Of a stretch of 24,227 nt of DNA, positions 5,726 to 24,227 are shown one piece after another; the first letter of the stretch is position 1, and each line of letters begins with the position of its first letter. A program made the translations under genes and the position numbers. The DNA comes from an uncultured Bifidobacteriaceae bacterium (GTDB lineage Bacteria > Actinomycetota > Actinomycetes > S36-B12): the NCBI GenBank assembly GCA_964343995.1, contig CAYFLO010000001.1, forward strand, positions 4,129 to 28,355, given 5' to 3'. The notes beneath the pieces are model-generated. The model searched no databases and was not told where the DNA came from. It saw only the letters and a program-made list of their open reading frames with translations.

Positions 5726-6103
5726 TCAGGCGCCGTCGAGAAACGCGATCTCGCGCAGCAGCCCCAGCTGAACGGACGTGCGCGGTGTGGTGTCGACCGC
5801 GGGGAGTACGACGATCTCATGCGGATCGGCCGTGCCGATGGAATCCAGAATGACCGCCGGCTGCTGCGAGAAGTGCTCGCGGAACTCCGGCGCGTAGATC
5901 TGCACCAGGTCGGCCTCGAGAGCCAGGTCCGGGCACTCCACGTCCTGGGCCAGGAGCTCGGGAGCCAGGGCGAGCACGTCGTCGGCCACCGAGGTGGCTG
6001 CGGCGGCGAACCACGTCGGGGTGCGTGCGGCCGGTGCCTGCGGGTCGACGACCACCCGCGGCTCGACCGTCGGAAGGGTGAAGGGCTCCTGCGTCATCGT
6101 CAC
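5726..6103 (-). CDS. Hypothetical acidic protein (~125 aa)
   Basis: GTG/ATG start (6103/6097) just after the ATPase stop with a purine-rich SD-like tract. Normal codon usage. This is the C-terminal part of track ORF 5726..7264. Confidence 0.65.
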   Translation of the reverse strand: MTMTQEPFTLPTVEPRVVVDPQAPAARTPTWFAAAATSVADDVLALAPELLAQDVECPDLALEADLVQIYAPEFREHFSQQPAVILDSIGTADPHEIVVLPAVDTTPRTSVQLGLLREIAFLDGA

Positions 6104-6107
6104 TCCC

Positions 6108-7670
6108 CTATCTCCGGAACAGTCCGCGTCGACGTCCGTCGGCGTCGGAGGCCTGCAACCCCGATGCCGAAGCGGCGGCCGATGCCCCCACGAGCTCGGA
6201 GGTGCGCCACGGCATGAGGTCGCGCCCCGGCAGGCAGACCCGGGCCAGCTCGTTGTAGGCCGGGCCCAGAAGGGGATGGTCGAGCAGGGCCGACATCCGG
6301 GTGAGGTTGGTGGCGGTGAGGACGTCCTTGGTGGCCAGCGGGATGACGCCGACGACCGGGACTCCGAGGCCCGCGGCCAGCACCTGGTCACGTTCCATGC
6401 CCACGTCGGCGACCGACTGGTTGACGACGATGCCGATGCGCTCGCGCGGAACGCCCATGCCGGACTCGTCGACCGGTGCCGTGATCTCGCGCAGAGCGCG
6501 AGCCATGCCCTGCACTGCCGTGGATGCCAGCGTCGTGACGAACAGCACCTCATCGGCCTCCGGCAGGCAGACATCGGCGATGAGCGGATCGAGGTACTGC
6601 ACGCTGGTGTCCATGATGACAACGTCGTACATACGCTTAAGTGAGCGGATGATCGCGCGGTAGAACTCCGCACCCACAGCATCGGCCGTGCGCGGCCGGA
6701 TTGGTGCGAGCACGGTGTCGATGCCCATGAGCTCGTCGCGCACGACGTGGCGGCGGATCGCCTCCTCGTCCCACACCGGCTGGACGCGAATGTTGAGCGC
6801 GGTCGGCATGAACCGCCCGATGAGGCTGGCCACCTGTCCGTCACGGGTGTCCATGTCGACCAGGCACACCGATAGCGGAGCACCGGCATCTCGGGACGAG
6901 GTGGCGATCGCACCGGCCAGGAGCAGCGCGCACGTCGACTTGCCCGAACCGCCCTTGCTCGACGTGACGGTGATGGTCGTCTGACCCGCGGGACGCGGCC
7001 GGGCGAGCAGGTCGGCACTCGCCTGGGCCGGGACGTCGGACTCCGGTACGACCGCATGCGCACCGACGTCGACTGCGTGCGTGGAGGCCGCCGGGGTCGT
7101 GACGACACTCGGTGACGATGGCAGAGTCGCTGCCGCCGCCTCCTGCCACAGTCGCGAGCCGGAGAACCCCTCGCGGGCAAGCGGCGCATCGATATCAGGC
7201 CGGTAGTCGTCGGGGAACTCAACCTCGCCGTCGAGCACCCGACGCATGGTGTCGAGCACCGCACGTCCTCCCTGCACTACCGGCAGGAACGTGTACGGGA
7301 GCCGCTGCGGATCCAGGCGCTGCGCAACCGCCGCCTGCGCGATGGCCGCCTGCAGGACCTCCAGTCCCTCCGGACGCCACAGCGCGACGAACACATGCGC
7401 GCCCGCTGCCGACATCGCCACGATCGCACGGGCGGTGGCGATGAGCTCGGTGTCCGCACTCGGCGTTCCGTCGAGCAGGGAGTCGGAGAAGACCAGGATG
7501 CGCGACTGGGCATCCAGGCGGCCGCCGGACAGCGCATCCCACATCGCTGCGATGGAGCCTTGACGGTCCTGCACCGTCCAGTGCACGCCGTGACCGGCGA
7601 GCAGGTCGCTCACCGTGCGCTCGGCGACGACGATGACCGCGGGGCCCGTACCCGACGACGTCGCGCTCAT
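6108..7670 (-). CDS. CpaE/TadZ-like MinD/ParA-family ATPase with receiver-like N-terminal domain (520 aa)
   Basis: Deviant Walker A KGGSGKST, VDMD, Walker B VVIMDT, IVVNQ, and a C-terminal RRGLFRR amphipathic tail. ATGA overlap at 7667-7670. Confidence 0.85.
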   Translation of the reverse strand: MSATSSGTGPAVIVVAERTVSDLLAGHGVHWTVQDRQGSIAAMWDALSGGRLDAQSRILVFSDSLLDGTPSADTELIATARAIVAMSAAGAHVFVALWRPEGLEVLQAAIAQAAVAQRLDPQRLPYTFLPVVQGGRAVLDTMRRVLDGEVEFPDDYRPDIDAPLAREGFSGSRLWQEAAAATLPSSPSVVTTPAASTHAVDVGAHAVVPESDVPAQASADLLARPRPAGQTTITVTSSKGGSGKSTCALLLAGAIATSSRDAGAPLSVCLVDMDTRDGQVASLIGRFMPTALNIRVQPVWDEEAIRRHVVRDELMGIDTVLAPIRPRTADAVGAEFYRAIIRSLKRMYDVVIMDTSVQYLDPLIADVCLPEADEVLFVTTLASTAVQGMARALREITAPVDESGMGVPRERIGIVVNQSVADVGMERDQVLAAGLGVPVVGVIPLATKDVLTATNLTRMSALLDHPLLGPAYNELARVCLPGRDLMPWRTSELVGASAAASASGLQASDADGRRRGLFRR

Positions 7671-8116
7671 CGTGCACCCCGGCGGCCGGCCGGGCCGTAG
7701 AGGACGAATTCGCGCTGCACGGGCGTGAGCAGCGATGTCGTTACCGGCACCGGTGTCGACGACCACTCAGGCGACGCAGACGAGGCGGATCCGAAAGCGG
7801 CGGGAGCGGGCGTGGGATCCACCAGCATCGTCGCACTCGCGGTGATTGCGGCGCCGACGGGCGCCGCCGGAGCGACGACCGGGTCGGCCATCGCATGCAG
7901 GCTGTCGCGGAAGATCTCCCGGGCCTGCTCGTCGATGACGGCGGCATGGCCGGCGAAGAAGTCGCTGCCGAGGTCGTCCTGGCTCACCGTCGACATCCGG
8001 GCGAGCAGGGCATCGGGATCGGTCGCTCCGAAGACGCCGGTGACCGTGGGCGTCGGGGTCGAGGTGCCACCGAACAGCTCCAGGCCTTCGCGCAGGGCGC
8101 GATCCTGATCGCTCAT
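7667..8116 (-). CDS. Hypothetical Ala/Pro/Thr/Ser-rich protein (149 aa)
   Basis: SD GGAGGAG and ATGA overlaps at both ends. Confidence 0.7.
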   Translation of the reverse strand: MSDQDRALREGLELFGGTSTPTPTVTGVFGATDPDALLARMSTVSQDDLGSDFFAGHAAVIDEQAREIFRDSLHAMADPVVAPAAPVGAAITASATMLVDPTPAPAAFGSASSASPEWSSTPVPVTTSLLTPVQREFVLYGPAGRRGAR

Positions 8117-8550
8117 GACGACTCCTCCAGCCACTCGGCGGGGACGAAGTCCGGGATCGCGATGTCGATGAGCCCGTCCTCGGTGCGCACGGTGAGGGCC
8201 AGCAGGGTGCACGAGGCATCGGTGACCAGATTGAGCGCGCTCACCGGAAGGTCGGCCGCGATCCACGCGTGCCGCGACCAGCGCGCCTGCCACTCGACCG
8301 GAAGCCCGTCGTGGTGCGCGGCCAGGGCGACGTCCAGGAGCGGGCTTCCCGCGCCGACGATCGGGTAGGCGGCGAAGCGGATCGACCCGGCCCGTCCGGC
8401 GACGACTTCGCAGGTGATGGTGATCCGATGGGACGTGGCCAAGCCGGCCGGATCGATGATTCCAACGGGGGCGACAGACGTCACCAGACCCCACCCGCGT
8501 CGCACGAGACACTCTCGTCCGGCGTCGTCGACCTCGATCCGGGTGTCCAT
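8113..8550 (-). CDS. Hypothetical beta-rich protein (145 aa)
   Basis: Strong SD AAGGAGG before ATG 8550 and an ATGA overlap with the next gene. Confidence 0.75.
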   Translation of the reverse strand: MDTRIEVDDAGRECLVRRGWGLVTSVAPVGIIDPAGLATSHRITITCEVVAGRAGSIRFAAYPIVGAGSPLLDVALAAHHDGLPVEWQARWSRHAWIAADLPVSALNLVTDASCTLLALTVRTEDGLIDIAIPDFVPAEWLEESS

Positions 8551-8581: not shown

Positions 8582-8589
8582 GTATCGGA
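8582..8589 (-). promoter_or_regulatory. Near-consensus pil-regulon -10 element TCCGATAC
   Basis: One mismatch to GCCGAWAC, intergenic, 31 nt upstream of ATG 8550, within ATCGG-T-CCGAT. Confidence 0.55.
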
Positions 8590-8626: not shown

Positions 8627-9445
8627 TCAGGCAACGATCGCCCCGGAGGCAGCGCCGAGATACCAGGCGGCCAGGGCCGGTCCCAGCACCAGGCCCACGG
8701 CGGCACCGGCGATGAGGAACGGGCCGAAGGCGATGGCCTGGCGTCGTCGCGCTCGTCCGGCGACGAGCAGCACAACGGCCACGGCACCGCCCAGGAGGAA
8801 GGACGCGAACAGGCCCGAGGCCGAGGCACCGATGCCGACCCAGCCGACGGTGGCCCCCAGGACCGGGGAGAGCTTGACGTCGCCGAGTCCCATGCCGCGC
8901 CCGCGCGTGAGGACGTGGAGCACCCCGGTGACCGTCGTCCAGAGCACAGCGCCGATGAGGGCCCCGGTGACGTTGGACTCCCCCGAGATCAGCCAGGCGA
9001 CCACGAGGCCGACAGCGGTGATCGGGTAGAGCGGGTAGACGATCGCGTTCGGAAGTCGATGGACGTCGAGGTCGATGAGTGCCAGCGCCAGGCACGCGGA
9101 GGTGAGGACGAGGAGGAGTGGCAGGAGACCCGCAGGTCCGGACCCCACGAGGCACCACCACGCCATGGCCCCCCACAGCACACCGTTGGCCAGTTCGACC
9201 AGGGGGTAGCGCGCACTGATACTTGCGCGGCAGGAACGGCAGCGACCGCGCAGGAGCAGCCAGGACAGAACCGGTACCTCATCGCGCGGCGTGATGCCCG
9301 CACCGCACGACGGGCACGCCGACCGCGGGCGTACCACTGAGCGGCCCTGCGGCACGCGATGGATGACGACGTTGAGGAAGGACCCCACGATCAGGCCGAG
9401 GAGGCCGGCGGCCACCACGGCGATGAGCGCCAGGTCGGTGGTCAC
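8627..9445 (-). CDS. pilD: Prepilin peptidase / N-methyltransferase (A24A)
   Basis: GSFLNVVIHR, PRSACPSC, RGRCRSC, ISARYPLVE, catalytic IDLDVHRLP and GMGLGDVKL, and FGPFL. Confidence 0.96.
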   Translation of the reverse strand: MTTDLALIAVVAAGLLGLIVGSFLNVVIHRVPQGRSVVRPRSACPSCGAGITPRDEVPVLSWLLLRGRCRSCRASISARYPLVELANGVLWGAMAWWCLVGSGPAGLLPLLLVLTSACLALALIDLDVHRLPNAIVYPLYPITAVGLVVAWLISGESNVTGALIGAVLWTTVTGVLHVLTRGRGMGLGDVKLSPVLGATVGWVGIGASASGLFASFLLGGAVAVVLLVAGRARRRQAIAFGPFLIAGAAVGLVLGPALAAWYLGAASGAIVA

Positions 9446-10347
9446 GAGGAGCCGCCCACGCCGGCCATGACAGCACGCGCGAGGTCGGCACGTGCCTGCT
9501 CCAGTCGCGATTCCAGGTCGGCGATGAGCCGGTGCAGCTCGGCCACATCGGTCGAGTCAGGCGCACCGGTGTCCGCGGTCGTCGTGGCGCGCGGGGAACC
9601 GAGGTCGACCGAGCCGAACTGCTCGGGGACGACGTAGTGGTCGGACTGTTCGACCGGCACCGACACCGCCTCCGCGCGTCGCTGCAGGACGACGAGCGCG
9701 GCCAGGTGCACCGCCTCGGCACGCGTGAGACCCAGGCGTCCGGCGACCGCATCGACACTTCCGCCACGACCGGCCTCGGTGAGGAACGCCGCGACCTCGG
9801 GGGCGTCGCCGGACACGTGGCGTCCGGAGACCACCAGCCCGGTGTCGACCGGGCTGCCCTGCAGCGTGACGGTGCGCCAGGTGGCCTCCGTGCGCTCGCG
9901 ACGCACCTGCACCAACGCGCGAAGTTCGTCGAGATCGACCGGAAGGGCGCACTGCTCGCCGGTCGTCACGCCCTCCTCGAACTCCACGCGCACCGAGCGC
10001 AGGGTCGAGAGGGCCCCGACACCGGCGACGAGAAGCTCTTGATGGATCGCAGCGAGGGCATCGATGGCGATGAGTCCCCGCTCGACCGCGACGCGACCGA
10101 TCGGACGACCACTGTCCGCGGTGGAGAGGGCCAGGGCTCGGATGTCGTCCTCGTTCACCTCGCCCTGCGCGACGATGCGGTCGGTGATGGACGGGGCATA
10201 GTGGTCGAGCTCGACCGCGTAGGCGCAGCCGTCGACGGTGAAGACGCGTGCCCGATGTCCGCTGCGCCGATCGGTGACGACGATCGCCCCGGTGCGTCCG
10301 CGTGCCACATCCCACAGGGCCTGCCCCGACGTGCGTCCGATCCTCAT
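9442..10347 (-). CDS. DUF4388-like protein with MshEN-like helical repeat and C-terminal coiled coil (301 aa)
   Basis: Pattern TGAIVVT...VFTVDGCAYAV...IGRVAVERGLI...VEFEEG recalls DUF4388. ELHRLIADLESRLEQARADL coiled coil. Overlapping start/stop codons at both ends. Confidence 0.6.
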   Translation of the reverse strand: MRIGRTSGQALWDVARGRTGAIVVTDRRSGHRARVFTVDGCAYAVELDHYAPSITDRIVAQGEVNEDDIRALALSTADSGRPIGRVAVERGLIAIDALAAIHQELLVAGVGALSTLRSVRVEFEEGVTTGEQCALPVDLDELRALVQVRRERTEATWRTVTLQGSPVDTGLVVSGRHVSGDAPEVAAFLTEAGRGGSVDAVAGRLGLTRAEAVHLAALVVLQRRAEAVSVPVEQSDHYVVPEQFGSVDLGSPRATTTADTGAPDSTDVAELHRLIADLESRLEQARADLARAVMAGVGGSS

Positions 10348-11051
10348 GAGGCGGGTATCGGCTGGCTGGTGACCCAGGGGGCCTGGCGCTCATGGATCGG
10401 GCAGGGGGCCGCTCCCCCGTGGTCGACGGTGCCCACGTCGAATCCGGGACGACCGGTGCAGCCCGGACTCCACTCCTGCCGCAGCAGTCGACCGCCGGAC
10501 TCCACGCTCGACAGTGACATGCCGCCACCGGGACCGCCAGGGCCGACATGGTCGATGTGGACAACATGCTCAGGGATGACGTCGCGGGCCACCGCGCCGT
10601 CACGCACGACAAGGGAGTAGTGACGTACCGAGAGGTCACCGACGACCATGACGGTGGCGGCGCCGGACTCGCGCACGGTGAGGCTGCAGCGCGAGCCGAG
10701 GTAGGACGCCAGGTCGCGACGCTCGCCGGTGCCGAGGGTGAACGTCGTCGCCTCGCCGCCCGCGTACGCCCGATAGCCCAGTCGCGGGTCATAGGCCTTG
10801 CCCACGTGCTCGCGCACGGCGCGTTCGGCCTCGTCGAAGGTCCCTGCCCGCCCTTCGATGAGCAGGCGTGGCAGTCCGTCGACCGCGGTCATGCGATCGC
10901 AGAGCTCCCACCCGTACGACGCCACATGGCGCTGTCCGTCGACCATGGCACTCGTTCCGCTGATCCGGGCCACGAGGTGGTCGGTCAGCCACGTCCACTG
11001 CAGGATCCCGGACTCGTCGGTGAAGACCCACGGGATGGGGGTCGCGGTCAT
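10344..11051 (-). CDS. Hypothetical multidomain protein (235 aa), possible Sm-like domain and C-terminal Cys/His motif
   Basis: ATGA overlaps at both ends and host-like codon usage. Product is unknown. Confidence 0.75.
   Translation of the reverse strand: MTATPIPWVFTDESGILQWTWLTDHLVARISGTSAMVDGQRHVASYGWELCDRMTAVDGLPRLLIEGRAGTFDEAERAVREHVGKAYDPRLGYRAYAGGEATTFTLGTGERRDLASYLGSRCSLTVRESGAATVMVVGDLSVRHYSLVVRDGAVARDVIPEHVVHIDHVGPGGPGGGMSLSSVESGGRLLRQEWSPGCTGRPGFDVGTVDHGGAAPCPIHERQAPWVTSQPIPAS
10355..10362 (-). promoter_or_regulatory. GCCGATAC -10 element, 7 nt before ATG 10347
   Basis: Plus-strand GTATCGGC with exact 7-nt spacing to a start that has no SD. Confidence 0.6.
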
Positions 11052-12208
11052 GCCGGCTGCAGGAGCGCGGTGAGTCCGTCGTCCGCGCCCAGGGCCCCGC
11101 CCAGGCTCTCGCCCATGGCCGATACCGATCGGGTGACGGCGGCGCCGACGGCCTTGGGCAGAACCCCCAGGGCCTGCGCCACGTCCTGGCGGGTGCGCTC
11201 GCCCCAGAAGGTGAGGTAGGTGCAGGCCAGCGCCATCGCATCGGCCCGCAGCGCGCCGCTGCGATCGCGACGCAGGCACGAGTCGAGTACGGCGCGGGTG
11301 AGCACCTGTGCGGTCGCCCGCGACAGGCACGCATCATCCGCTGTCTCCGCGGCGATCAGACCCACCTGGTCGCACGACACTGACTGCGCATCGTCGTCGT
11401 CGGCGCGGCTCACCAGGGACCTCGGCACGCGCAGGGCGTGGGTGGTGGCCACGGCCTGGCGGCGCTTACGGACGTCACCCACCGTGGTGCCCGTGAGCTC
11501 GGCGAGCTCGGCGTCGGTGGTGCGGCGATGCTGGGTCGCCAGCGACTCGTCCTCCAGCCGGCGGAAGCGCAGCTGGTCATCGATCGTGGTGCGACCGTAC
11601 GCGGCCCGCGCCGCATCCTGCGGCCACTTGCGCAGCTTGCCCAGCATGAACACCAGGAAGGTGAGAGTGCCGTTGCGACCGAGCCGGTCGGCGTCATAGC
11701 GGTCGGCGTGATCGCTGATGAACAGGTACATCATCGAGCGCACGTCGTCGTCATCGATGAGATCGAGGTCGGCCATGAGCTTGCGGCGAATCGCGAAGGT
11801 GCGCGGGTACAGCCAGTCGACCGCGGCCATCACCAGCTCACCGAAGAGTCCGTCCGGGATCGCGTCCACGTTGCGGAAGGGCACACCGGTCTCCACCCGC
11901 ATGTTGTGGGCGGCGACGTCGTTCTCCTGGCACCACTGGGCAATGTCGTCGCGCGCCTGCGCACCCATGCCCTGCGGCACCCAGATGCGGTGCTGGCCAT
12001 CGCTCCACCGCCGGGTCGCAGCCTCGTAGGGAAGCGCGGTGACGATGTCGTGCGTCGAGACGGCCGCGTCACCGTCCCAGTGCACGCGATCGCACACCAT
12101 CGCGGGAGCCAGCGCGAGGATCTCCCCCTCGTCCATGCCGCGGACGACCAGGCGCGGGATCCGGCGCCCCTGCCGGTTGCTCGCCGTGATGAGCAGGTCC
12201 TCGCTCAT
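11048..12208 (-). CDS. Divergent group-3 (WhiG/FliA/SigF-like) sigma-70 factor with extra N-terminal domain (386 aa)
   Basis: Region 2-like DVRSMMYLFISDHADRYD...TFLVFMLGKLRKWPQDAAR, region 3-like RRTTDAELAELTGTTVGDV, and region 4-like YLTFWGERTRQDVAQALGV. SD GGAGGAAG. Confidence 0.7.
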   Translation of the reverse strand: MSEDLLITASNRQGRRIPRLVVRGMDEGEILALAPAMVCDRVHWDGDAAVSTHDIVTALPYEAATRRWSDGQHRIWVPQGMGAQARDDIAQWCQENDVAAHNMRVETGVPFRNVDAIPDGLFGELVMAAVDWLYPRTFAIRRKLMADLDLIDDDDVRSMMYLFISDHADRYDADRLGRNGTLTFLVFMLGKLRKWPQDAARAAYGRTTIDDQLRFRRLEDESLATQHRRTTDAELAELTGTTVGDVRKRRQAVATTHALRVPRSLVSRADDDDAQSVSCDQVGLIAAETADDACLSRATAQVLTRAVLDSCLRRDRSGALRADAMALACTYLTFWGERTRQDVAQALGVLPKAVGAAVTRSVSAMGESLGGALGADDGLTALLQPA

Positions 12209-12528
12209 GCGGCTTCCTCCGACACCATCGGCGCCACGAACATCGGCTCCCACGGCTCGAGTTCGTCGAGAACGTCGACCAGACCGCCGACGGCCATCTG
12301 CGCCTCCGGCTCACCGGCGCGGATCGCCGCAGGGGCACCCAGGAGCGCGCCCAGACGAACGCTGCGCCCCTCCGGGCTCACTCGGTCGTCGATCACCCGT
12401 AGCCAGCCGAAGGTGGCCAGGAGCCGCTGGAGCCGCTCCTGCAGGAGAGCCGAGGACTGCTGGGTCGCCTGAACCGCCAGCACCACCTCGACGGGTGCCT
12501 CCACTGAATTCACCGCACTGCCGTTCAT
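12205..12528 (-). CDS. Hypothetical protein (~107 aa), first gene of the accessory operon
   Basis: High GC3 codons and an ATGA overlap with the sigma gene. Start codon uncertain (12528 or GTG 12513). Confidence 0.65.
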   Translation of the reverse strand: MNGSAVNSVEAPVEVVLAVQATQQSSALLQERLQRLLATFGWLRVIDDRVSPEGRSVRLGALLGAPAAIRAGEPEAQMAVGGLVDVLDELEPWEPMFVAPMVSEEAA

Positions 12529-12603: not shown

Positions 12604-12671
12604 CTTTACTCAGGCTTGGCCCACTTTTGTCGCGGCACTGGCTGCGGACGCCCCGGGTAAACCCGAGCGCG

Positions 12672-12721
12672 CAAAGAGCGACGGCGGCCGCTCCTCCCTC
12701 GCGGGGGGAACGACCGCCGTC
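12672..12721 (-). terminator. Intrinsic terminator-like hairpin after pilA
   Basis: Minus strand GACGGCGGTCGTTCC...GGAGCGGCCGCCGTC (15-bp stem with 2 GU pairs) followed by GCTCTTT, 16 nt after the pilA stop. Confidence 0.8.
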
Positions 12722-12737
12722 GGCGGTTCGCTGGGGA

Positions 12738-15751: not shown

Positions 15752-17427
15752 GCGACCACCCGCAGCACCTCGGCCACGGTGGTGACGCCCTGCGCCACCC
15801 GAAGCCAGCCGTTGTCGCGAAGCGATCGCATGCCCTGATCGAGGGCGACGCGACGCAGCTCGTCGGATGTGGCCCGACGGGCGGTGAGATCAGCGAGCTC
15901 CGGTGACATCGGCATGACCTCGTGGAGGGCGAGGCGCCCGCGATACCCGGTGCCGGCACAGCTCACGCACCCGACCGGCTCGAAGATCGTCGGCGTGACG
16001 TCGGCGGGCACGACGAATCCGACCGCGGCGAGATCCGCAGGAGTCACCTGCGACGGGCGCTTGCACGTGGGGCACAGGCGGCGCGCAAGGCGCTGCCCGG
16101 TGGCGCACTGCAGCGCCGAGCCGACGAGGAACGGCTCGATCCCCATCTCGGTGAGGCGGGTGACCACACTCGGAGCGTCGTTGGTGTGCAGCGTGGTGAG
16201 GACGAGGTGGCCGGTGAGGGCGGCCTCGATGGCGATCTGTGCGGTCTCGTGGTCGCGGATCTCGCCGATGAGGATGACGTCGGGATCGGCCCGCAGGATC
16301 GCACGCAGCGACGACGCGAAGGTGAGACCGGCCTTGCCGTTGACCTGCACCTGATTGATGCCCGGGATGCGGTACTCCACCGGGTCCTCGACCGTGACGA
16401 CGTTGATCTGCGGCCGCGCCACCGCGTTGAGCGTTGCGTAGAGCGACGTGGACTTGCCCGACCCCGTCGGTCCGCTCACGATGAGCATGCCGTAGGGGCG
16501 CTGGTAGGCCGAGCGCCAGCGATCGAGGTCCGACGGAGTGAAGCCCAGGTCGGGCAGCCCCAGCTGTGCCGAGGAGTTGTCCAGGATGCGCATGACGATC
16601 TTCTCGCCCCACACGGTGGGCAGGCAGTTCACGCGCAGGTCGACCTTGCGGCCCTGCGACGACACCGACAGGCGACCGTCCTGCGGACGCCGCTTCTCCG
16701 CGATGTCCATGTCGCACATGATCTTCAGCCGGGAGATGATCGCGGTCTGGATCTCCTTGGGAGCCGGGGTCATCTCGGTGAGCACGCCGTCGATCCGGAA
16801 GCGGATGCGGATGCTGCTCTCGGTGGGCTCGACGTGGATGTCGGAGGCCTGGTCGGAGATCGCCTGGTTGAGCAGCAGGTTCACGTAGCGCACCAGCGGC
16901 GCGTCGGTCGTCGAGGCAACCGGTGCGGCCAGGTCGATCGTCGGCTCGTCGTCGAGCATGTCGCGCACGAGTTCGCCCAGCTCGGCCTCGGCCCGGTACA
17001 CCTGGTTGAGGCGGGTCACGAGGTCCTGCTTGAGCGCGCAGGCGAACCGCACCGACCGGCGCGTCACGGCCTGCAGGTCGTCGCGCACCTGCCAGTCCAT
17101 GGCCGTCGTGGTGTCGGAGGCGACGATGAGCACCGAACCCTCCGAGCGGACCGGAACGACGCCGTAGCGACGGGCCTGCTCCGGCGACAGCAGCGCCAGG
17201 CAGGCCGGATCCAGCGAGGCGTTGAGGATGTCGACGTACTCCATGCCCGCCGCGGTGACCGTCGACCGCAGGACGTCATGCGACGAGACCAGGCCGGCAT
17301 CGACGAGCGCCTTCACCGCACCCTGGGCACCACCGGTGGCGTGCGCGGCCTGCACCTGTTCGGGCGTCACGAGCCCGTCGCGCAGGAGCACGTCCAGTGC
17401 GCTGGCGGGTTGGTCCTGAATGGTCAT
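15748..17427 (-). CDS. pilB: Extension ATPase PilB (GspE/PulE family)
   Basis: ASDIHVEP, RRPQDGR, GPTGSGKST, EDPVEY, ALTGHLVLTTLHTN, and Zn tetracysteine CPTC...CVSCAGTGYRGR. ATGA overlaps at both ends. Confidence 0.96.
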   Translation of the reverse strand: MTIQDQPASALDVLLRDGLVTPEQVQAAHATGGAQGAVKALVDAGLVSSHDVLRSTVTAAGMEYVDILNASLDPACLALLSPEQARRYGVVPVRSEGSVLIVASDTTTAMDWQVRDDLQAVTRRSVRFACALKQDLVTRLNQVYRAEAELGELVRDMLDDEPTIDLAAPVASTTDAPLVRYVNLLLNQAISDQASDIHVEPTESSIRIRFRIDGVLTEMTPAPKEIQTAIISRLKIMCDMDIAEKRRPQDGRLSVSSQGRKVDLRVNCLPTVWGEKIVMRILDNSSAQLGLPDLGFTPSDLDRWRSAYQRPYGMLIVSGPTGSGKSTSLYATLNAVARPQINVVTVEDPVEYRIPGINQVQVNGKAGLTFASSLRAILRADPDVILIGEIRDHETAQIAIEAALTGHLVLTTLHTNDAPSVVTRLTEMGIEPFLVGSALQCATGQRLARRLCPTCKRPSQVTPADLAAVGFVVPADVTPTIFEPVGCVSCAGTGYRGRLALHEVMPMSPELADLTARRATSDELRRVALDQGMRSLRDNGWLRVAQGVTTVAEVLRVVA

Positions 17428-18554
17428 GCGACCTCCTTCGATCCGGCGCGCCGCAGCGCGACCCGCAGGTCCGTCGGCCTCGTCGCGACCTTCTCCGCCT
17501 CCGCCAGGGTCACGCGACCGGACATCACCAGGTCGACGAGGTCCTGCTGGAAGGTGCGCATGCCGTAGAAGCCGCTCTCGCTGAGGATCTCCTCCAGGTC
17601 GGCCGTCCGCTCGGCATCGGCGATCGCGTCCTGCACGCGGGTCGTGCCCACGCACAGCTCCAGTGCCAGGGCGCGACGACCACCCGTGGGCAGCAGGCGC
17701 TGGCAGACCAGGGCCCGCAGGGTCTCGGCCATCGACCGGCGCATCTGCTGCTGCTCGTCACGGGGGAAGAGGTCGACCACGCGGTTGACCGCGTCGACGA
17801 CAGTCTTGGCATGCAGGCTGGTGAGCACCAGGTGGCCGGTCTCGGCGGCCTGCAGGGCGGTGCGCATCGTCTCGGCGTCACGGATCTCACCGACGAGGAT
17901 GACGTCGGGGTCCTGGCGCATGCCGGCACGCAGGGCGCTGGCGAAGTCGACGGTGTCGGTGAGCACCTCGCGCTGGCTCACCGAGGCCTGGTCGTCATGA
18001 TGGACGAACTCGATTGGGTCCTCGATCGTGAGGATGTGGCAGCGGCGGGACCGGTTGATGCAGTCGACCATCGACGCCAGCGTCGTGGACTTGCCGGACC
18101 CCGTCGGTCCGCTCACGATGATGAGGCCGCTCTCCAGGAGCGCCAGGCTGCTCATGACCGGCGGGAACCCCAGGTCGCCGAGGGCGGGCACATGGGCGCG
18201 CACGTGACGCAGCACCATCGCGGTCGCCCCTCGCGTGCGGTACGCATTGCCGCGGAACCGCTCCCCGGTGTCGTCGACGTACGCGAAGTCGACCTGCCCG
18301 TCGCGCAGGAGGGTCTCGCGGTCCGCGGCCGCCACGAGCGCCTGCTCGACGAGGAAGGCGGCCTGCCGCTCGGTGAGGACGGGGAATCCGGTGGGACGGA
18401 GGTCGCCGTCCACCCGCACGGCCGGCACCGCCGACGCCTTGATGTGCACGTCCGAGGCACCCATCGCCACGGCCTGGGCCAGCAGGTCGGCCAGCCGCAC
18501 CGGGGCATGGGGCGCCGCGGCGAGGACGAGGTCGGGACCGGTGGGCAGCACCAT
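17424..18554 (-). CDS. Second PilT/PilU-family ATPase
   Basis: ASDVHI, GPTGSGKSTT, TIEDPIE, MRQDPD and AAETGHLVLTSLH. The AIRNLIRE position reads RVQDAIAD. Confidence 0.92.
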   Translation of the reverse strand: MVLPTGPDLVLAAAPHAPVRLADLLAQAVAMGASDVHIKASAVPAVRVDGDLRPTGFPVLTERQAAFLVEQALVAAADRETLLRDGQVDFAYVDDTGERFRGNAYRTRGATAMVLRHVRAHVPALGDLGFPPVMSSLALLESGLIIVSGPTGSGKSTTLASMVDCINRSRRCHILTIEDPIEFVHHDDQASVSQREVLTDTVDFASALRAGMRQDPDVILVGEIRDAETMRTALQAAETGHLVLTSLHAKTVVDAVNRVVDLFPRDEQQQMRRSMAETLRALVCQRLLPTGGRRALALELCVGTTRVQDAIADAERTADLEEILSESGFYGMRTFQQDLVDLVMSGRVTLAEAEKVATRPTDLRVALRRAGSKEVA

Positions 18555-18561: not shown

Positions 18562-18585
18562 GTTTCGGCTCGACCGCGCCGATAC
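18562..18585. promoter_or_regulatory. Back-to-back -10 elements GCCGAAAC (minus, 18562-18569) and GCCGATAC (plus, 18578-18585)
   Basis: Each lies exactly 7 nt before its ATG (18554 for pilT2, 18593 for pilM), and neither start has an SD. Confidence 0.75.
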
Positions 18586-18592
18586 GGACACC

Positions 18593-19780
18593 ATGAAGCT
18601 GCGCAAGCGCTCGACCCAGGCCTGGGAGCCCAGCCGTCGACGCCGGGCCGCCCGACCCGATCACGGGGCGGTCGTGGGTCTGGACATCGGTGCCACCCAG
18701 GTGAGCGCGGTGCGCCTGCGCAAGAAGGGCTCCGGTTACACGATCGCCCACGCAGCGCAGGTGCCGCTGGAGCCCGGTGTCGTGGTCAACGGCCAGGTCA
18801 CCGATCCCCGCGCCCTCGCCCGCGCCCTGCGCACCCTGTGGCGCAAGGGCCGCTTCGGCACCCGTCGGGTGTGCTTCTCCCTGGCCGCCCCCAGCGTCAT
18901 CACCCGTCAGGTCGACCTGCCGTGGATGCCCGAACCGGACTTCAGCCTGGCGCTGCGCTACCAGGTGACCGACGCCCTCCCCGTCGACCTGGCCACTGTC
19001 GAACTCGGTCACCACACCCTGGGTGACTACGTGCGCACCGAAGGGTCCGGCCAGTCGATGGAGATGAGCCGAACCCTCCTGGTGGCCTCCCCCACCGACG
19101 CGATCGTCGACACCGCCGAGTGCCTGCGCCGGGCCAACCTCGTGCCGATCGCCGCCGACTCCCCCGCCTTCGCGCTCATCCGTGCGGCCTGCGGAGGGAC
19201 GGTGTCCCAGACGGGCGCCCTCGCCGCGATCGTCGATGTCGGTCACGACACCGTGACCGTCGTTCTCCATGTCGACGGGCAGCCGCGGTTCCTGCGCAGT
19301 GTGGCGAGCACCGGAGCCGGATCGGCCACCGCGACCATCGCTGAGCGGTTCGGCCTGTCGGCTGCTGACGCCGATGAGCTCAAGGTCCGTATCGGTCTGC
19401 GAGGTCCGGTGCCGGTCATCACTCCGCTGCGAGAGTCGGGCATCTTCGGCGGTCTGCCGCTGGCGCCCGAGGCCGACGCCGATCCGCGCACGCAGGCCGT
19501 CATGACCCTGGCGTCGACGTGGGCCGGGCGCGTCATCGGCGAGGTCCGCAACTCGCTGGACTACTACCTGGCCGGCCACCCCGAGGAGTCCCTCTCCGAG
19601 ATCGTCCTCACCGGGCGCGGTGCCCTCATCGACGGCTTCGACAGCCGTCTGCAGACCGAGCTGCGCACCCCCGTCCGGGTGATCAGCCTGGACGACGTTG
19701 CCCGCGGCCCGCGTCGCGGCGTGCGCGTGGAGCATCCGCACTCGCTGGCGATCGCCGCCGGCCTGGCGATGGCCTCCTGA
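18593..19780 (+). CDS. pilM: Type IV pilus assembly protein PilM (actin/FtsA-like)
   Basis: VGLDIGAT, AAIVDVGH, EVRNSLDYY, IVLTGRGA and AIAAGLA. ATG 18593 is preferred over the track start at 18557. Confidence 0.93.
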   Translation: MKLRKRSTQAWEPSRRRRAARPDHGAVVGLDIGATQVSAVRLRKKGSGYTIAHAAQVPLEPGVVVNGQVTDPRALARALRTLWRKGRFGTRRVCFSLAAPSVITRQVDLPWMPEPDFSLALRYQVTDALPVDLATVELGHHTLGDYVRTEGSGQSMEMSRTLLVASPTDAIVDTAECLRRANLVPIAADSPAFALIRAACGGTVSQTGALAAIVDVGHDTVTVVLHVDGQPRFLRSVASTGAGSATATIAERFGLSAADADELKVRIGLRGPVPVITPLRESGIFGGLPLAPEADADPRTQAVMTLASTWAGRVIGEVRNSLDYYLAGHPEESLSEIVLTGRGALIDGFDSRLQTELRTPVRVISLDDVARGPRRGVRVEHPHSLAIAAGLAMAS

Positions 19781-19781: not shown

Positions 19782-20672
19782 ATGGCCCTGTCCCTCACCC
19801 TGCGTCGCGGCAGCGCCGAATCCGACACTTCCCAGAGCGACGGCACCGCCCGCACTTCCGGCATGGGGCCGGCCACGGCTCGCGCGCAGCTGCCCGCGGT
19901 CAACCTGCTTCCCGCCAGCGTGAGCGCCGCGGTGCGCGTGCACCGCATCCGCCGATCGCTTGTGGCCGTGGCGATCGGCCTGGTGGTCGTCAGCGGCGTG
20001 GCGTGGTACCTGCAGGGATCGTCCATCGACCAGGCTCAGACCCTCGTCACGTCGGCGGAGGAGCAGAACGCCTCGCTGCGCGCCCAGGTCGACTCCTATG
20101 CGGCCGTGAGCCACCTGCAGGAGGCGATCGTGGCGCAGGAGAAGCTCGTGAGCACCGCGCTCGCCTCCGATCCCGATGCCGCCGGCATCGTCGACCGCGT
20201 GCGCACGGCTGCGGGCCCGGACATCACCCTCACCCAGGTGGCGGCCACGTACTCCGGACTTCCCGACCCCGCAGCCGTCCTCCAGGGCCAGGCCCACCTG
20301 TTCTCCTGCCCGGACCCGTCGCCGTTCACCACCAAGATCTCGGTGGGCTGTGTGAGTCTGTCGGGCAGCGCCACGACACGCGCCGCCATCTCGGAGTTCC
20401 TCGCTCGGGTCGACGCCGATCCGGTGCTGGACGGCCCGTTCCTGGAGTCGTCCGTCTTCGTCGCCGCCTCCACCGAGGCTCCCGCGCACGTGGACTTCAC
20501 CGCATCGTTCGGCATCTCCCCGGCCGGGCTGCGCACTCCGCTGGATCAGAAGGCCATCGACGACCTCATCGAGCGCGCCACGCCGCGCCCCGCCGCCACT
20601 GATCCAGCAGCCACTGCATCGCCCGGTGCACCCGCAGGCCAGGGCACCGTCACCCAGGGAGCCACGCCGTGA
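19782..20672 (+). CDS. pilN: PilN-like alignment-complex protein
   Basis: Conserved VNLLP motif, TM helix, coiled coil, ferredoxin-like C-domain (LSGSATT...FLARV), directly after pilM. Confidence 0.85.
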   Translation: MALSLTLRRGSAESDTSQSDGTARTSGMGPATARAQLPAVNLLPASVSAAVRVHRIRRSLVAVAIGLVVVSGVAWYLQGSSIDQAQTLVTSAEEQNASLRAQVDSYAAVSHLQEAIVAQEKLVSTALASDPDAAGIVDRVRTAAGPDITLTQVAATYSGLPDPAAVLQGQAHLFSCPDPSPFTTKISVGCVSLSGSATTRAAISEFLARVDADPVLDGPFLESSVFVAASTEAPAHVDFTASFGISPAGLRTPLDQKAIDDLIERATPRPAATDPAATASPGAPAGQGTVTQGATP

Positions 20673-21379
20673 GCACCATGACCGCCGCAAGTCCCGCCGG
20701 CCGCCGGCATCGGGCACCGATGTCGCCGCGCACCCAGGGCATCATCGGCGTCGTCCTCGTGCTCATCATGGGCGCGATCCTGTGGTTCGGAATTCTCGGC
20801 CCACGCTTCTCGCAGGCCGCGGACCTGCAGGAGCGTGCCGCGTCGGTCGACGCCAGCAACACCGCTCTGACGGCGCGGGTGGGGCGCCTGCGCACGCTGG
20901 CCGACCAGGCTCCCGCCGTCGCGGCGCGCGCCGAGGCGCTGTTTCGCACGATGCCGCAGCAGGCGGACCTGCCCGTCGTTCTCAATGACATCACCGCGGC
21001 GGCGCGTGACAGCGGCATCTCCCCCGACGGAATCCTGGCGATCAGCCCGGCCGCGCCGGTTCCCTTGACCGCTGCAACACCTGCGGGCGCTAACTCGGTG
21101 ACCGCCACGGCGGCGGAGTCGATCGGAGTGAAGATTGCCACGCTGCCGATGACGATCACCGTCGAAGGCGATCCCGCCGTGCTGGATGCCTTCGTCGGCC
21201 GCCTGCAGAACCTGCAGCGCGCCTTCGTCATCACCGGTACGCAGTACGCCACCGGTCCCACCGTGCCGGGCAAGCCCGCGACCACGTCGCTGACGGTCAC
21301 CGGAACGATGTTCGTTCTCGCCTCGCAGCTTCCCGACCTGGTCGCAGAGGTCACCCGGTCACTGCCCGCCGGACGCTAG
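20669..21379 (+). CDS. pilO: PilO-like alignment-complex protein
   Basis: TM helix, coiled coil, MPQQADLP...AA..SGI and ITVEG...FVGRLQNLQRAFVI patterns. GTGA overlap with pilN. Confidence 0.85.
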   Translation: MSTMTAASPAGRRHRAPMSPRTQGIIGVVLVLIMGAILWFGILGPRFSQAADLQERAASVDASNTALTARVGRLRTLADQAPAVAARAEALFRTMPQQADLPVVLNDITAAARDSGISPDGILAISPAAPVPLTAATPAGANSVTATAAESIGVKIATLPMTITVEGDPAVLDAFVGRLQNLQRAFVITGTQYATGPTVPGKPATTSLTVTGTMFVLASQLPDLVAEVTRSLPAGR

Positions 21380-21634: not shown

Positions 21635-21642
21635 GCCGATAC
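21635..21642 (+). promoter_or_regulatory. GCCGATAC -10 element, 7 nt before ATG 21650
   Basis: Shares CGCGCCGATACG (12 nt) with the pilM promoter. No SD. Confidence 0.7.
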
Positions 21643-21649: not shown

Positions 21650-22012
21650 ATGGCCGGCCTCCTCATCCCTGCGGACGTCCACGAGGACAGTTCCCTGGTC
21701 ACGCTGAGGGGTGCGTACCTGGATGCGGTCGGGGCCTTCGTCATGGCACCCGTGGACGTCATCGACGTGCTCGATGCCAACGGACATCCCAGCGGCATGT
21801 CGGTCTGGTTCACCGAGGACGGCGAGAGCCGTGCCCTGCCCCTCAATGTCGAGGTCTCGCGCCTCGTGGCGCCGTGGCGTGTTCATGGAGTGGCCCTCAT
21901 CACCCGTGGGGACGTCAATGACCCTGATGCCCTGGACCTGCCGGCATCCGATGTGGAGGTGCTGCGGGAGCTGCTCGCGCTCACCGAGCCATTGACTGCG
22001 CCGGAGGTCTGA
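21650..22012 (+). CDS. DUF3846-like protein (120 aa)
   Basis: Pattern ...MSVWFTEDGESRALPLN...SRL...VHGVALIT recalls the DUF3846 EEG..LP.N...I.G..L signature (recognised from memory). Confidence 0.6.
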   Translation: MAGLLIPADVHEDSSLVTLRGAYLDAVGAFVMAPVDVIDVLDANGHPSGMSVWFTEDGESRALPLNVEVSRLVAPWRVHGVALITRGDVNDPDALDLPASDVEVLRELLALTEPLTAPEV

Positions 22013-22154: not shown

Positions 22155-22162
22155 GCCGAAAC
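22155..22162 (+). promoter_or_regulatory. GCCGAAAC -10 element of the minor pilin operon
   Basis: 16-nt exact identity GTCGAGCCGAAACACC (22150-22165) with the pilT2 promoter (reverse complement of 18559-18574). Confidence 0.75.
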
Positions 22163-22230
22163 ACCCCGGGGAACCGCAATTCGACCCGGGTCCCCTGACG
22201 GTGTCGGACACGCGAGCGCAGGAGGCCCGG

Positions 22231-23541
22231 ATGCGGTCGGCGATCTCGCGCCCCGCCGGGGACCCCCGCCCCGACGACGAGGGCTTCACCCTCATCGAAG
22301 TGATGGTGGCTCTTCTCATCTTCGTCATCGTGTCGACGGCCACGGTCGGCCTGCTCATCCTCGGACTTCGCCTCGTCCGTGAGAACACCGCGCGGGTGCA
22401 GGCCGCTGGTATCGCGCAGACGCAACTGGACTCGCTGCGCCAGCGGGGCGCCGCGCTCGTCCCCGTCGGCGTCTCGACCACGGCGCCGCAGGGAACGAGC
22501 ACGCGATTCACCGTGCGCACGACGAGTCAGTGGGTGGGTCTGGGGCAGGGCACCGCCAGTGCCTGCCAGGCCGCCACCCCCGGACAGGCCTACCTGCGGG
22601 TGGCCATCGACGTGAGCTCCCCCGATCTGCGCGGTCCGCAGCACGTGGAGTCGGTGATCATCCCCGAGCCCGGGCAGGGTCCCGGTGCGGGCATCACCGG
22701 TCCGACCGGCGCGGTGGCCATCGCCGTCGCCGACCAGAACGGTCAGCCGGTGTCCGACGTCGTCGTCTCGGGCACCGACACCGCCGTCCCGCTCAACGCC
22801 TTCTCGGTGACGACCGGATCGGATGGTTGCGTCTACCTGCCGGCCATGCGGGTCTCCGGCTCGCTGGTCGTCACCGTGGCGAAAGCCGGCTATGTCGCCT
22901 CCACGCCGACGGGACGCACGCAGACGGTGCAGGTCTCCAGTGGCGGGCTGGCGCGCGTGGGATTCAGCTACGCCGCCTCGTCGAATGTGGCGTTCACCTC
23001 CGGTGTTCCCGGCTTCGCACTGCCCGGGGCCGCACCGATCACCTGGCAGCCCAACGCCACCGGGTCGGTCGCCACGGTCGTCACCACGGCCACTCCCCCG
23101 ACCGGCCTGTGGCCGGCGACGTCCGGGTTCTCCGCCTGGATGGGCAAGTGCACCGACAACGCGCCCAGCGCCTACGGCACCAGCGCCCCGTCGTTCGCCT
23201 TCACTGCGGGGGGCACCTCGAACGCCGGCATCGTCGGATCTCCGCTCATCCTCACCGGCATCACCCCAACCCTGCCGGTGCTGGCCCGCTATGCCGGAAA
23301 CGACAGCACCTGCGCCGGCTCGACGATCGACCTGGGCCGCGCCGATGCCCTCGGCACAATCAGCACGCTGGTGCCCTTCGGCACCTGGACGATCGTCGCC
23401 GGCACCCAGTCGCTGAGCACCGGTCGCCTCACACCCACCACCACGGTCACCCCGCTGATCTTCACGCTCTACTCGCCCACCGCCTCGCCGAGCGCCAGCC
23501 CGAGCGGGTCGCCCTCAGCATCACCGACGAGCACGCCATGA
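22231..23541 (+). CDS. PilV-like minor pilin with large extracellular beta-sandwich region
   Basis: DDEG/FTLIEVMVALLIF prepilin site and SD GGAGG. AIAVADQNGQPVSDVVV...TTGSDGCVYL...VTVAKAGY resembles a carboxypeptidase-regulatory-like domain. SPSAS-rich tail. Confidence 0.85.
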   Translation: MRSAISRPAGDPRPDDEGFTLIEVMVALLIFVIVSTATVGLLILGLRLVRENTARVQAAGIAQTQLDSLRQRGAALVPVGVSTTAPQGTSTRFTVRTTSQWVGLGQGTASACQAATPGQAYLRVAIDVSSPDLRGPQHVESVIIPEPGQGPGAGITGPTGAVAIAVADQNGQPVSDVVVSGTDTAVPLNAFSVTTGSDGCVYLPAMRVSGSLVVTVAKAGYVASTPTGRTQTVQVSSGGLARVGFSYAASSNVAFTSGVPGFALPGAAPITWQPNATGSVATVVTTATPPTGLWPATSGFSAWMGKCTDNAPSAYGTSAPSFAFTAGGTSNAGIVGSPLILTGITPTLPVLARYAGNDSTCAGSTIDLGRADALGTISTLVPFGTWTIVAGTQSLSTGRLTPTTTVTPLIFTLYSPTASPSASPSGSPSASPTSTP

Positions 23542-24227
23542 CGCGACGATTCGCGAGTCGTGACGCACATCGCCGCGCCAACAGCGACGACGCCGGTTTC
23601 AGTCTCATCGAGCTGGTGACGTCGATGGCGGTGTTCTCGATCCTGGTCATCATCGTGGGGGCGGCCATGCTCGCGGCGTTCTCCGCGATCCGTGACACCA
23701 CGGCACGCAGCGATGCCCAGGCCCAGGCGCAGAACGCCACCGAATGGTCGTCGCGCCTGCTGCGCTTCTCGACCACGCCGCTGGGCCAGACCGGCGCGAT
23801 CGTCGACGCCAGCAAGGCCTCGATCACCTTCTTTTCTGATGCCGGCCTGGCGGGGCGAAACGATGCTCCCGCCAAGGTGCGGCTGTACGTGCAGGCCAAT
23901 GCCGACGGGACGCAGACGGTGCGCAGCCAGGTCTGGGCCCCCACGCAGACATCCACGGGCTGGACGTGGGCCGCCACCGCCACCTCGCGCGACCTGCTCA
24001 CCGTCCCCAAGGGCGCCACGACTCCCCTGGCCGTCTCGGTGTACGTCTGCGACCCGAACGTCTCGTGCTACAGCCCCGAGACCTGCGCGGCCATGGTGCC
24101 CACCTGCACGTCCACCACGTGGCGCGATGCCACCCCGGTGACGTCCGGGGCGCTGGCCCTGGGAGCCACCGAACTGCCCAAGGCCGTGCGGATCACCGTC
24201 GGGGACTCCCGGTATCCGGAGCTCCAG
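23538..24227 (+). CDS. PilW/PulJ-like minor pilin, truncated by the window edge
   Basis: Translated by hand (absent from the track): MTRRFASR...DDAG/FSLIELVTSMAVFSILVIIVGAAM. ATGA overlap with the previous gene and open to 24227. Confidence 0.85.
   Translation, partial: MTRRFASRDAHRRANSDDAGFSLIELVTSMAVFSILVIIVGAAMLAAFSAIRDTTARSDAQAQAQNATEWSSRLLRFSTTPLGQTGAIVDASKASITFFSDAGLAGRNDAPAKVRLYVQANADGTQTVRSQVWAPTQTSTGWTWAATATSRDLLTVPKGATTPLAVSVYVCDPNVSCYSPETCAAMVPTCTSTTWRDATPVTSGALALGATELPKAVRITVGDSRYPELQ

Follow-up and report, generated by a model that had tools for sequence, protein, structure and literature searches.

Which sigma factor reads the promoters of a type IV pilus (T4P) locus that carries a sigma factor-like gene of its own? 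The question is raised by a 24,227-nucleotide (nt) stretch of DNA (hereafter, the window; 70% G+C) that belongs to a metagenome-assembled genome (MAG; 2.05 Mb, 78% complete) of an uncultured actinobacterium and was recovered in freshwater metagenomes. From position 5726 to its end, the window is occupied by a type IVa pilus (T4aP) locus with a complete set of the corresponding proteins (PilB, two PilT/PilU ATPases, PilC, PilD, PilM, PilN, PilO, and GFxxxE pilins). Between pilA and pilD lies a gene that we call sigL, whose product, as judged from profile comparisons and structure predictions, is most likely a very divergent group-3 (FliA/WhiG/SigF-like) sigma factor with a fused ferredoxin-like N-terminal domain. 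We think it probable, though well short of certain, that SigL drives the locus, i.e., that this is a T4aP regulon with its own sigma factor; that it binds the core polymerase and these promoters, and all of its regulation, we infer. An initial annotation of the window had proposed that a divergent, domain-extended sigma factor inside the locus may drive it, and the comparative evidence presented here, strong but indirect, supports that proposal.

A shared putative promoter box in the pilus locus

The octamer GCCGAWAC occurs seven times in the window against an expectation of 0.96, and none of 100 shuffles reached this number. Six of the seven copies face a downstream gene start (pilT2, pilM, pilA, the DUF4388 gene, orf120, and the minor pilins), in keeping with the earlier claim that a sigma-28-like octamer precedes most transcription units. 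Behind five of the seven exact copies, ATG or GTG comes after a gap of 7 nt (N7; binomial P ~2.5 × 10−7), and four of these five lead into real gene starts with ATG and without a Shine-Dalgarno sequence (pilT2, pilM, the DUF4388 gene, and orf120). The boxes, with one variant, are as follows.

18562..18569, (-) strand: -10 box GCCGAAAC of the pilT2-pilB-pilT1-pilC operon; 7 nt, then ATG at 18554
18578..18585, (+) strand: -10 box GCCGATAC of pilMNO; 7 nt, then ATG at 18593; back to back with the pilT2 box
13261..13268, (-) strand: -10 box GCCGATAC of pilA; ATG at 13199 preceded by a leader of ~60 nt and a GGAG ribosome-binding site
10355..10362, (-) strand: -10 box GCCGATAC within the 3' end of orf235; 7 nt, then the ATG of the DUF4388 gene; putative internal promoter of DUF4388-pilD
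21635..21642, (+) strand: -10 box GCCGATAC; 7 nt, then the ATG of orf120
22155..22162, (+) strand: -10 box GCCGAAAC upstream of the minor-pilin operon
8582..8589, (-) strand: one-mismatch box TCCGATAC upstream of the post-pilD operon orf145-orf149-ParA-like-orf123
11118..11125, (+) strand: GCCGATAC, 7 nt, then GTG; antisense in the 3' end of sigL

At the position equivalent to 8582..8589, after pilD, relatives have an exact GCCGATAC, and T at the first position is a common variant. The copy at 11118..11125 is probably there by chance, the alternative being an antisense promoter, since no open frame lies behind it and it falls in the variable C-terminal tail of the SigL family. The orf107-sigL-orf235 operon is the sole unit of the pilus locus without a preceding box.

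In the open complex of Pseudomonas aeruginosa sigma-28, the box GCCGATAA occupies positions -15 to -8 (PMC12784957). Transcription from an equivalently placed box would therefore start at the eighth base after it, which is the A of the ATG at the N7-spaced boxes, and the corresponding mRNAs would therefore be leaderless. The start codons of pilT2 and pilM are 38 bp apart and their -10 boxes 8 bp apart (window positions 18552-18595), so that two polymerases could hardly occupy both promoters together. A further element lies after pilA.

12671..12731, (-) strand: terminator-like hairpin after pilA (-46.1 kcal/mol, z = -5.3, 0 of 200 shuffles as stable)

This hairpin, which separates pilA from the sigL operon, came from folding; scans of 12400-13350 for a consensus sigma-70 promoter and an intrinsic terminator returned nothing. 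A search for RNA sequencing runs containing the locus found none, the locus being met in freshwater DNA metagenomes only.

In the whole MAG, the combination of box, N7, and RTG occurs 10 times, five of them in the 24-kb window, and the density of the octamer is 6.4 times higher in the window than in the genome. The five occurrences outside the window are consistent with chance, and a search of the available 78% of the genome for further members of the regulon yielded only promoter-like copies before unrelated genes (those for an RbpA-like protein, GlgE, and an L,D-transpeptidase), in roughly the number expected by chance. On this portion of the genome, the regulon looks confined to the pilus locus. 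In two closed chromosomes of relatives (G112 and G270), the motif with N7 and RTG is barely more frequent than in a reversed control (10 versus 5 and 7 versus 3, respectively), and the site before pilT2 is the only clearly real one. The copy at the RbpA-like gene (GAGCCGAAAC, 7 nt, then GTG; G000 contig C51:135-527, L093:150-527) precedes the frame of a 125-amino-acid (aa) protein that, by eye from its motifs, resembles RbpA, the actinobacterial RNA polymerase-binding protein; this box may have arisen by chance, or it may genuinely tie the regulon to the transcription machinery.

SigL as a probable divergent sigma factor

The predicted layout of the protein is as follows.

11048..12208, (-) strand: sigL, 386 aa, divergent group-3 sigma-like protein; between pilA and pilD
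Residues 1-117 (nt 11858-12208), (-) strand: N-terminal domain, predicted ferredoxin-like
Residues ~118-371: sigma2-sigma3-sigma4, predicted

Searched alone, SigL has no Pfam match at E ≤ 0.01 and no significant NCBIfam match, and a scan of the whole genome with the FliA_WhiG model (TIGR02479) at E ≤ 0.001 does not recover its gene. Its identity as a sigma factor therefore rests on family-level profiles, fold, and hhalign comparisons; these sustain the sigma-70-like protein named in the initial annotation, and the single-sequence searches do not. The family comprises >227 sequences (90% clustering) with ~50% identity, nearly all annotated as hypothetical. It is a small family: among 1.84 billion sequences, a threshold of E ≤ 0.001 recovered 93 representatives, and one of E ≤ 1e-30 recovered 25. 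When a profile built from 30 members was compared with the Protein Data Bank (PDB), it matched sigma factors only (best, sigma-F 1l0o_C; E = 0.0017). When the members were searched individually, Sigma70_r3 matched 23 of the 30, Sigma70_r4_2 matched 24, SigB/F/G matched 18, and FliA_WhiG matched all 30 weakly (best E = 3e-7).

The structural evidence points the same way. In the AlphaFold (AF2) model of SigL (pLDDT 80.7), residues 118-371 match SigF, FliA, WhiG, SigD, and SigB at a Foldseek probability of 1.0, and the predicted architecture has sigma2, sigma3, the 3.2 linker, and sigma4 in canonical order, without region 1.1. With hhalign, regions 2.2 to 4.2 could be aligned to the canonical WhiGs of related clusters (E = 1.6e-4). 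Identity to WhiG and SigF is 15 to 20%. In the family alignment, F187, K191, R193, D198, R201, and R206 of SigL are invariant or nearly so, and they fall at or next to the positions of Y76, R80, R82, D87, R90, and R97 of sigma-28, a correspondence drawn through the WhiG pattern YAVTRIRGxxLDELRxLDWxPR and not through the P. aeruginosa sequence itself. Among these sigma-28 residues are those that contact the flipped -11A by stacking and recognize -12G and the extended -10 GC (PMC12784957).

The N-terminal domain, a new one that stands apart from the sigma part, is predicted with a pLDDT of 90.1 to adopt a ferredoxin-like alpha/beta fold and bears strikingly invariant polar motifs (CDRxHW and WSDGQxRxWV). 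Its structural neighbors are generic (ACT, acylphosphatase, and MzrA; best Z, 6.9), and a function could not be read from fold searches, which gave only generic matches such as DUF4162/ABC C-terminal domains at TM <0.5.

Conservation of the locus and distribution of SigL, pili, and WhiG

We compared the window with ~50 related loci, all from uncultured MAGs labeled Candidatus Nanopelagicales, Actinomycetes, or Actinomycetota. Almost every one of them shows the order pilONM <> pilT2-pilB-pilT1-pilC-pilA-[small orf]-sigL-orf235-DUF4388-pilD-...-ParA-like-orf123, at protein identities of 40 to 70% and with sigL constantly between pilA and pilD; the linkage of the accessory genes to pil clusters, for which the initial annotation had advised a search, is thus general among these loci. 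With G or T permitted at the first base, pilT2 is preceded by the motif in 26 of 28 loci (KCCGAHAH-N7-RTG, always with N7 and a start codon), pilM in 26 of 27, pilA in all 32 (mostly as TCCGAAAC), and the DUF4388 gene in 16 of 36. Internal genes have it in 1 to 2 of ~30 loci, and the background is 10.6% per 290-nt window. A weak upstream element, GGGCC..AA, is found at -21 to -14 from the box. The leader of pilM is mostly longer in relatives, and 4 of 27 loci show the N7 spacing to its start codon. The sigL operon has no box in 24 of 32 loci, and a KCCGATAC at its expected promoter position was seen in one clade only (L050, L052-L054, L079).

We then tabulated the three genes of interest in a 201-genome sample of the order, with PilM as the T4P marker and canonical WhiG defined as a TIGR02479 match at E ≤ 1e-45.

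Family f1 (the window's family, 47 genomes): sigL 18/47, PilM 16/47, canonical WhiG 7/47
Family f10: sigL 0, PilM 39/46, canonical WhiG 42/46
Family f4: sigL 0, PilM 21/39, canonical WhiG 33/39
Family f5: sigL 0, PilM 6/16, canonical WhiG 12/16

Within f1, sigL is present in all 16 PilM-positive genomes and absent from 29 of the 31 PilM-negative ones. Of the 16 genomes with T4P and sigL, 11 lack canonical WhiG; these 11 are 89 to 99% complete, and one of them, G112, is a closed chromosome. In G270, also closed, sigL and the pilT2 box are present and WhiG is likewise missing. In these WhiG-less genomes, the best TIGR02479 matches are SigF-like (~120 bits versus the cut-off of 189.6), and the boxes are retained. 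Thus, within the window's family the pilus cluster tracks sigL and not WhiG, and genomes that lack WhiG have kept the sigma-28-type boxes; on this rests the main, if indirect, argument that SigL reads them. The competing reader that the initial annotation had foreseen, a separate canonical WhiG, was in this way checked indirectly: it occurs in only 5 of the 16 PilM-positive f1 genomes and in neither closed chromosome. In the sister families, the T4P clusters are colinear, lack the sigL module, and are paired with a high-scoring WhiG, and in some of these loci pilA or pilM is preceded by GCCGAWA boxes.

PilM and PilT are both absent from five f1 genomes that have a WhiG-like gene and no sigL. 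Two of these five, one being G204 from the window's own genus, encode the flagellar export protein FlhA, which suggests a flagellar role for their WhiG-like gene. A side comparison in f1 (G204 and G064) bears on this: in the window's genus, one genome has flhA and a FliA-like sigma factor and lacks T4P and sigL, and the window genome has T4P and sigL and gave no flagellar match. The flagellar and T4P sets seem to be alternative modules for an appendage, each equipped with a sigma factor of its own.

The two f1 genomes with sigL and without PilM belong to genus g6 and have a reduced remnant, orf98-sigL-pilD-orf147, which in one of them (L102, G172) lies beside TerC; this remnant may be what is left of a pilus cluster after decay, or else a sigL regulon for another prepilin-dependent system. 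At a greater distance, we found proteins of 400 to 570 aa that match both the N-terminal domain and the sigma part of SigL and lie outside T4aP clusters (L099, L100, and L101; P0129, P0143, and P0162). One of their genes adjoins a prepilin-peptidase-like gene and sbcCD, and another, on a contig of 38% GC, has an orf235-like gene 2.6 kb away, so that the pairing of sigL with pilD and orf235 may predate its link to a full pilus cluster. That contig was considered as a possible phage and gave no phage evidence, its only PHROGs matches being to a sigma factor and SbcCD-like nucleases.

A proposed mechanism and its alternatives

We propose the following sequence of events. Behind the pilA terminator, a promoter of a different kind would serve the orf107-sigL-orf235 operon. 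RNA polymerase with SigL would recognize the extended -10 box (t)GA-KCCGAWAC together with the weak upstream GGGCC..AA and would start 8 nt past the box, giving leaderless mRNAs for pilT2-B-T1-C, pilMNO, DUF4388-pilD, and orf120 and leadered ones for pilA, the post-pilD operon, and the minor pilins. SigL would have taken over in f1 the T4P role that canonical WhiG/FliA has in Rubrobacter and Actinoplanes and probably in the sister families, and its N-terminal domain, perhaps with the coupled orf107 and orf235, may gate its activity. A bolder version, which we offer tentatively as a possibility, is that SigL represents a new group-3 sigma subfamily in which a ferredoxin-like (ACT/acylphosphatase-type) sensor in cis replaces the anti-sigma factor in trans (FlgM/RsiG), a one-component sigma factor that would have displaced WhiG/FliA for a largely leaderless T4P regulon, with orf235 and the prepilin peptidase as an ancient core module.

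Several observations weigh against SigL as the reader of the boxes. The single protein scores 13.3 bits on FliA_WhiG (E = 0.051), under the cut-off of 189.6; Sigma70_r2 matches none of the 30 family members; the probability of the hhalign alignment is just 50%; regions 2.1/2.2, which contact the core polymerase, are strongly altered; and the recognition helix of region 4.2 is atypical, without the usual Arg/Gln pattern. In addition, the 5 of 16 f1 genomes with T4P and sigL that do have a canonical WhiG, all from genus g5, encode it ~4 kb from sigL, inside the cluster, and their promoters are like those of genomes without an in-cluster whiG. Finally, a WhiG gene could be unassembled in the MAG, which is 78% complete. 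In one g5 locus (L005:14862-15900; G156), the canonical whiG (284 aa, 230 bits on FliA_WhiG) lies divergently between orf118 and the gene for the ParA N-terminal domain and has GAGCCAATAC before it, an arrangement suggesting that SigL and WhiG may be linked in a cascade or by feedback.

One alternative is that a canonical WhiG/FliA encoded elsewhere, and missed in the MAG, reads the boxes, with SigL serving, for example, another, unrecognized promoter set or a cascade with WhiG. Several actinobacterial families are known or predicted to place T4P under WhiG (PMC8325347, PMC12871210), a WhiG-like fragment is present in G204, of the same genus as the window, and some sister-family loci combine WhiG with GCCGAWA boxes. 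As the boxes are alike where WhiG is present, WhiG could be the reader in those g5 genomes, and redundancy or a cascade is possible there. On the whole, this explanation seems unlikely to us: the boxes are kept in the 11 WhiG-less genomes and in G270, the f1 genomes with a WhiG-like gene and no sigL have no T4P (and two of them have FlhA), and neither WhiG nor FlhA was matched in the window MAG at its 78% completeness.

It is also conceivable that SigL is derived from a sigma factor and no longer initiates transcription, acting as a DNA-binding regulator through its sigma3/sigma4 helix-turn-helix (HTH) motifs or as a decoy or adaptor for another sigma factor or the pilus machinery. The altered core-binding region without a Sigma70_r2 match, the extra N-terminal domain, and the distant relatives outside T4P clusters would fit such a role, but we regard it as improbable given that the model has the complete set of three sigma domains with the 3.2 linker in canonical order, that the residues aligned with the -10 readers of sigma-28 are invariant, and that WhiG-less genomes need some sigma factor for their sigma-28-type boxes while no other candidate tracks the locus. 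Least plausible as the reader of the boxes is a resident SigF/SigB-like group-3 sigma factor (contig C113), which gives the best FliA_WhiG match in the MAG (101 bits) and has counterparts in 114 of 120 other family genomes searched, but is a clear member of SigB/F/G (268.5 bits versus a cut-off of 234) and is present whether or not T4P is, and actinobacterial SigF promoters have a different consensus.

Pilus, accessory, and neighboring genes

Genes were called from third-position GC, start-codon context, and homology. The T4aP genes of the window are as follows.

17424..18554, (-) strand: pilT2, PilT/PilU ATPase (TIGR01420, 398.9 bits versus cut-off 319.1); first of its operon, predicted leaderless start
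15748..17427, (-) strand: pilB, assembly ATPase with MshEN (T2SSE 7.9e-134, MshEN 2.3e-14)
14489..15751, (-) strand: pilT1, PilT/PilU ATPase with a Pro-rich N-terminal extension (TIGR01420, 477.8 bits versus cut-off 319.1)
13285..14502, (-) strand: pilC, platform protein (T2SSF 3.9e-60 and PilC models)
12738..13199, (-) strand: pilA, major pilin (N_methyl 1e-8, GFxxxE domain)
8627..9445, (-) strand: pilD, prepilin peptidase (A24_N_bact 6.2e-35, Peptidase_A24 1.9e-13)
18593..19780, (+) strand: pilM (PilM_2 1.1e-33; TIGR01175, 140 bits versus cut-off 133)
19782..20672, (+) strand: pilN, weak match (PilN, E = 0.0041), supported by synteny; putative start
20669..21379, (+) strand: pilO (PilO 3.3e-6, T2SSM 3.2e-6)
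22264..23541, (+) strand: minor pilin with a large C-terminal domain (N_methyl, GFxxxE domain, weak PilV match)
23538..24227, (+) strand: second minor pilin (N_methyl); continues past the window end

Both PilT proteins and PilM thus exceed curated NCBIfam cut-offs; PilN and PilO match weakly at syntenic positions, and the top NCBIfam match of PilB is type_IV_pilB at 587 bits, under the cut-off of 675.65. PilT1 begins with a ~60-aa extension of repeated Pro-rich units (PPVMQPPV-like; window positions 15560-15751) before the PilT core. ATGA or GTGA overlaps at many gene junctions of the pilus locus indicate translational coupling, and together with the Pfam and NCBIfam matches they bear out the initial description of a T4aP set contiguous with a coupled run of uncharacterized genes. 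These accessory genes and the smaller frames are the following.

12205..12528, (-) strand: orf107, small acidic protein, ATGA-coupled to sigL
10344..11051, (-) strand: orf235, conserved, ATGA-coupled to sigL; invariant C198, H211, C217, and H220
9442..10347, (-) strand: DUF4388 (PATAN-like) protein, 301 aa, conserved in synteny
8113..8550, (-) strand: orf145, conserved; frame set by homology to L005 orf143 and L006 orf157; no Pfam match
7667..8116, (-) strand: orf149, conserved, ATGA-coupled
6108..7670, (-) strand: ParA/MinD-type ATPase with an N-terminal extension of ~230 aa, putatively CpaE/TadZ-like, conserved in synteny
5726..6097, (-) strand: orf123, conserved, last of the run
21650..22012, (+) strand: orf120, acidic, with box-N7-ATG; weak resemblance to DUF3846 (E = 0.12)
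21401-21616, (-) strand: small frame of 71 aa between pilO and orf120

The region 7667-8620 had initially been read as one gene and resolves into two conserved ones, orf145 and orf149. Because their positions are conserved, the accessory genes are candidates for pilus-associated proteins. For orf107, divergent counterparts of 136 to 145 aa occupy the equivalent place in relatives; searches with orf107, orf145, orf149, and orf123 gave no Pfam or NCBIfam match even at loose thresholds, and their relatives are known only from these loci. The orf235 gene always adjoins sigL, and its invariant C-x12-H-x5-C-x2-H is a possible zinc site; the protein has no Pfam or NCBIfam match even at loose thresholds and no usable Atlas match. 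A predicted complex of SigL and the orf235 product scored 0.21 against a mark of 0.32, a value that gives no verdict and was not used for or against binding. The DUF4388 protein matches PF14332 at 24.3 bits (E = 3.4e-5), just under the Pfam gathering threshold of 25, and the ParA-type ATPase matches AAA_31 (4.4e-9; 36.9 bits versus cut-off 27), CbiA, and, weakly, MinD. Neither orf120 nor the divergent 71-aa frame was found in the related loci, and the segment 21401-22012 looks like a lineage-specific insertion that acquired a pilus promoter.

The pilus locus is directly adjoined by the following genes, with no mreB in view.

1-5021, (-) strand: rodA/ftsW, PBP2-type transpeptidase, mreD, and mreC
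5093-5698, (+) strand: 201-aa protein with two HTH motifs, between mreC and the pilus locus

The double-HTH protein lies on the strand opposite to both mreC and the adjacent pilus genes and has no NCBIfam match.

Comparison with known systems

Control of T4P by WhiG/FliA is established in Rubrobacter radiotolerans (RsiG-WhiG) and Actinoplanes missouriensis (FliA paralogues), as the initial annotation had correctly stated, and predictions extend it to Jonesiaceae, Sanguibacteraceae, Cellulomonadaceae, and Cryptosporangiaceae (PMC8325347, PMC12871210). Neither this type of promoter nor its association with pili is therefore new. The sigL locus shares with these systems a group-3 architecture, an extended -10 box of the GCCGATAA type before several pil operons, and several promoters per cluster. 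It differs in that SigL scores 13 bits against the WhiG/FliA cut-off of 189.6, has a ferredoxin-like N-terminal domain of ~117 aa, is encoded in the cluster between pilA and pilD, and occurs mostly in genomes without a canonical WhiG; moreover, its box has a final C (GCCGAWAC, often TCCGAAAC), and a leaderless form is predicted for many of its mRNAs. We found no description in the literature of an in-cluster, N-terminally extended, model-negative sigma factor replacing WhiG, and such a replacement appears to be undescribed. Sigma-28-type control of actinobacterial pili has been recognized only recently and hitherto through canonical WhiG/FliA; here the same promoter logic persists without the canonical sigma factor, and a protein not recognized by the models is encoded at the center of the regulon and accompanies it from genome to genome.

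Should SigL be the reader, this would be a case of a sigma factor replaced within a conserved regulon and a new domain-fused sigma architecture that may sense a signal directly, and it would provide the first functional context for at least six conserved proteins (orf107, orf235, orf145, orf149, orf123, and the DUF4388 protein). The hosts are abundant uncultured freshwater actinobacteria, and their pili bear on DNA uptake, adhesion, and phage susceptibility.

With flagellar sigma-28 (the FliA-RNA polymerases of Escherichia coli and P. aeruginosa), the locus has in common the box sequence, its -15 to -8 position, and residues that by alignment would correspond to Y76, R80, R82, D87, and R97 (PMC12784957). 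In contrast, its upstream element is GGGCC..AA and not TAAA, and the target is a pilus rather than a flagellum. The near-universal motif-N7-ATG at pilT2 would offer a clean natural example of leaderless transcription, as predicted, from an alternative-sigma promoter.

Cyanobacterial SigF, which serves pilA and T4P motility, is likewise a dedicated group-3 sigma factor for pilus genes, but it belongs to another phylum, acts on another promoter type, and is encoded outside the pil cluster. A DUF4388/PATAN-like protein accompanies the T4P machinery both here, with a match just under the Pfam cut-off, and in cyanobacteria, where PATAN/DUF4388 regulators bind the T4P motor in Synechocystis (bioRxiv 10.1101/2021.06.11.447907). 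Lastly, as with CpaE/TadZ of Tad pili, a MinD/ParA (AAA_31) ATPase with an N-terminal extension is encoded in the pilus locus, whereas its neighbors here are those of a T4aP (PilB, PilT, and PilMNO) and not Tad genes.

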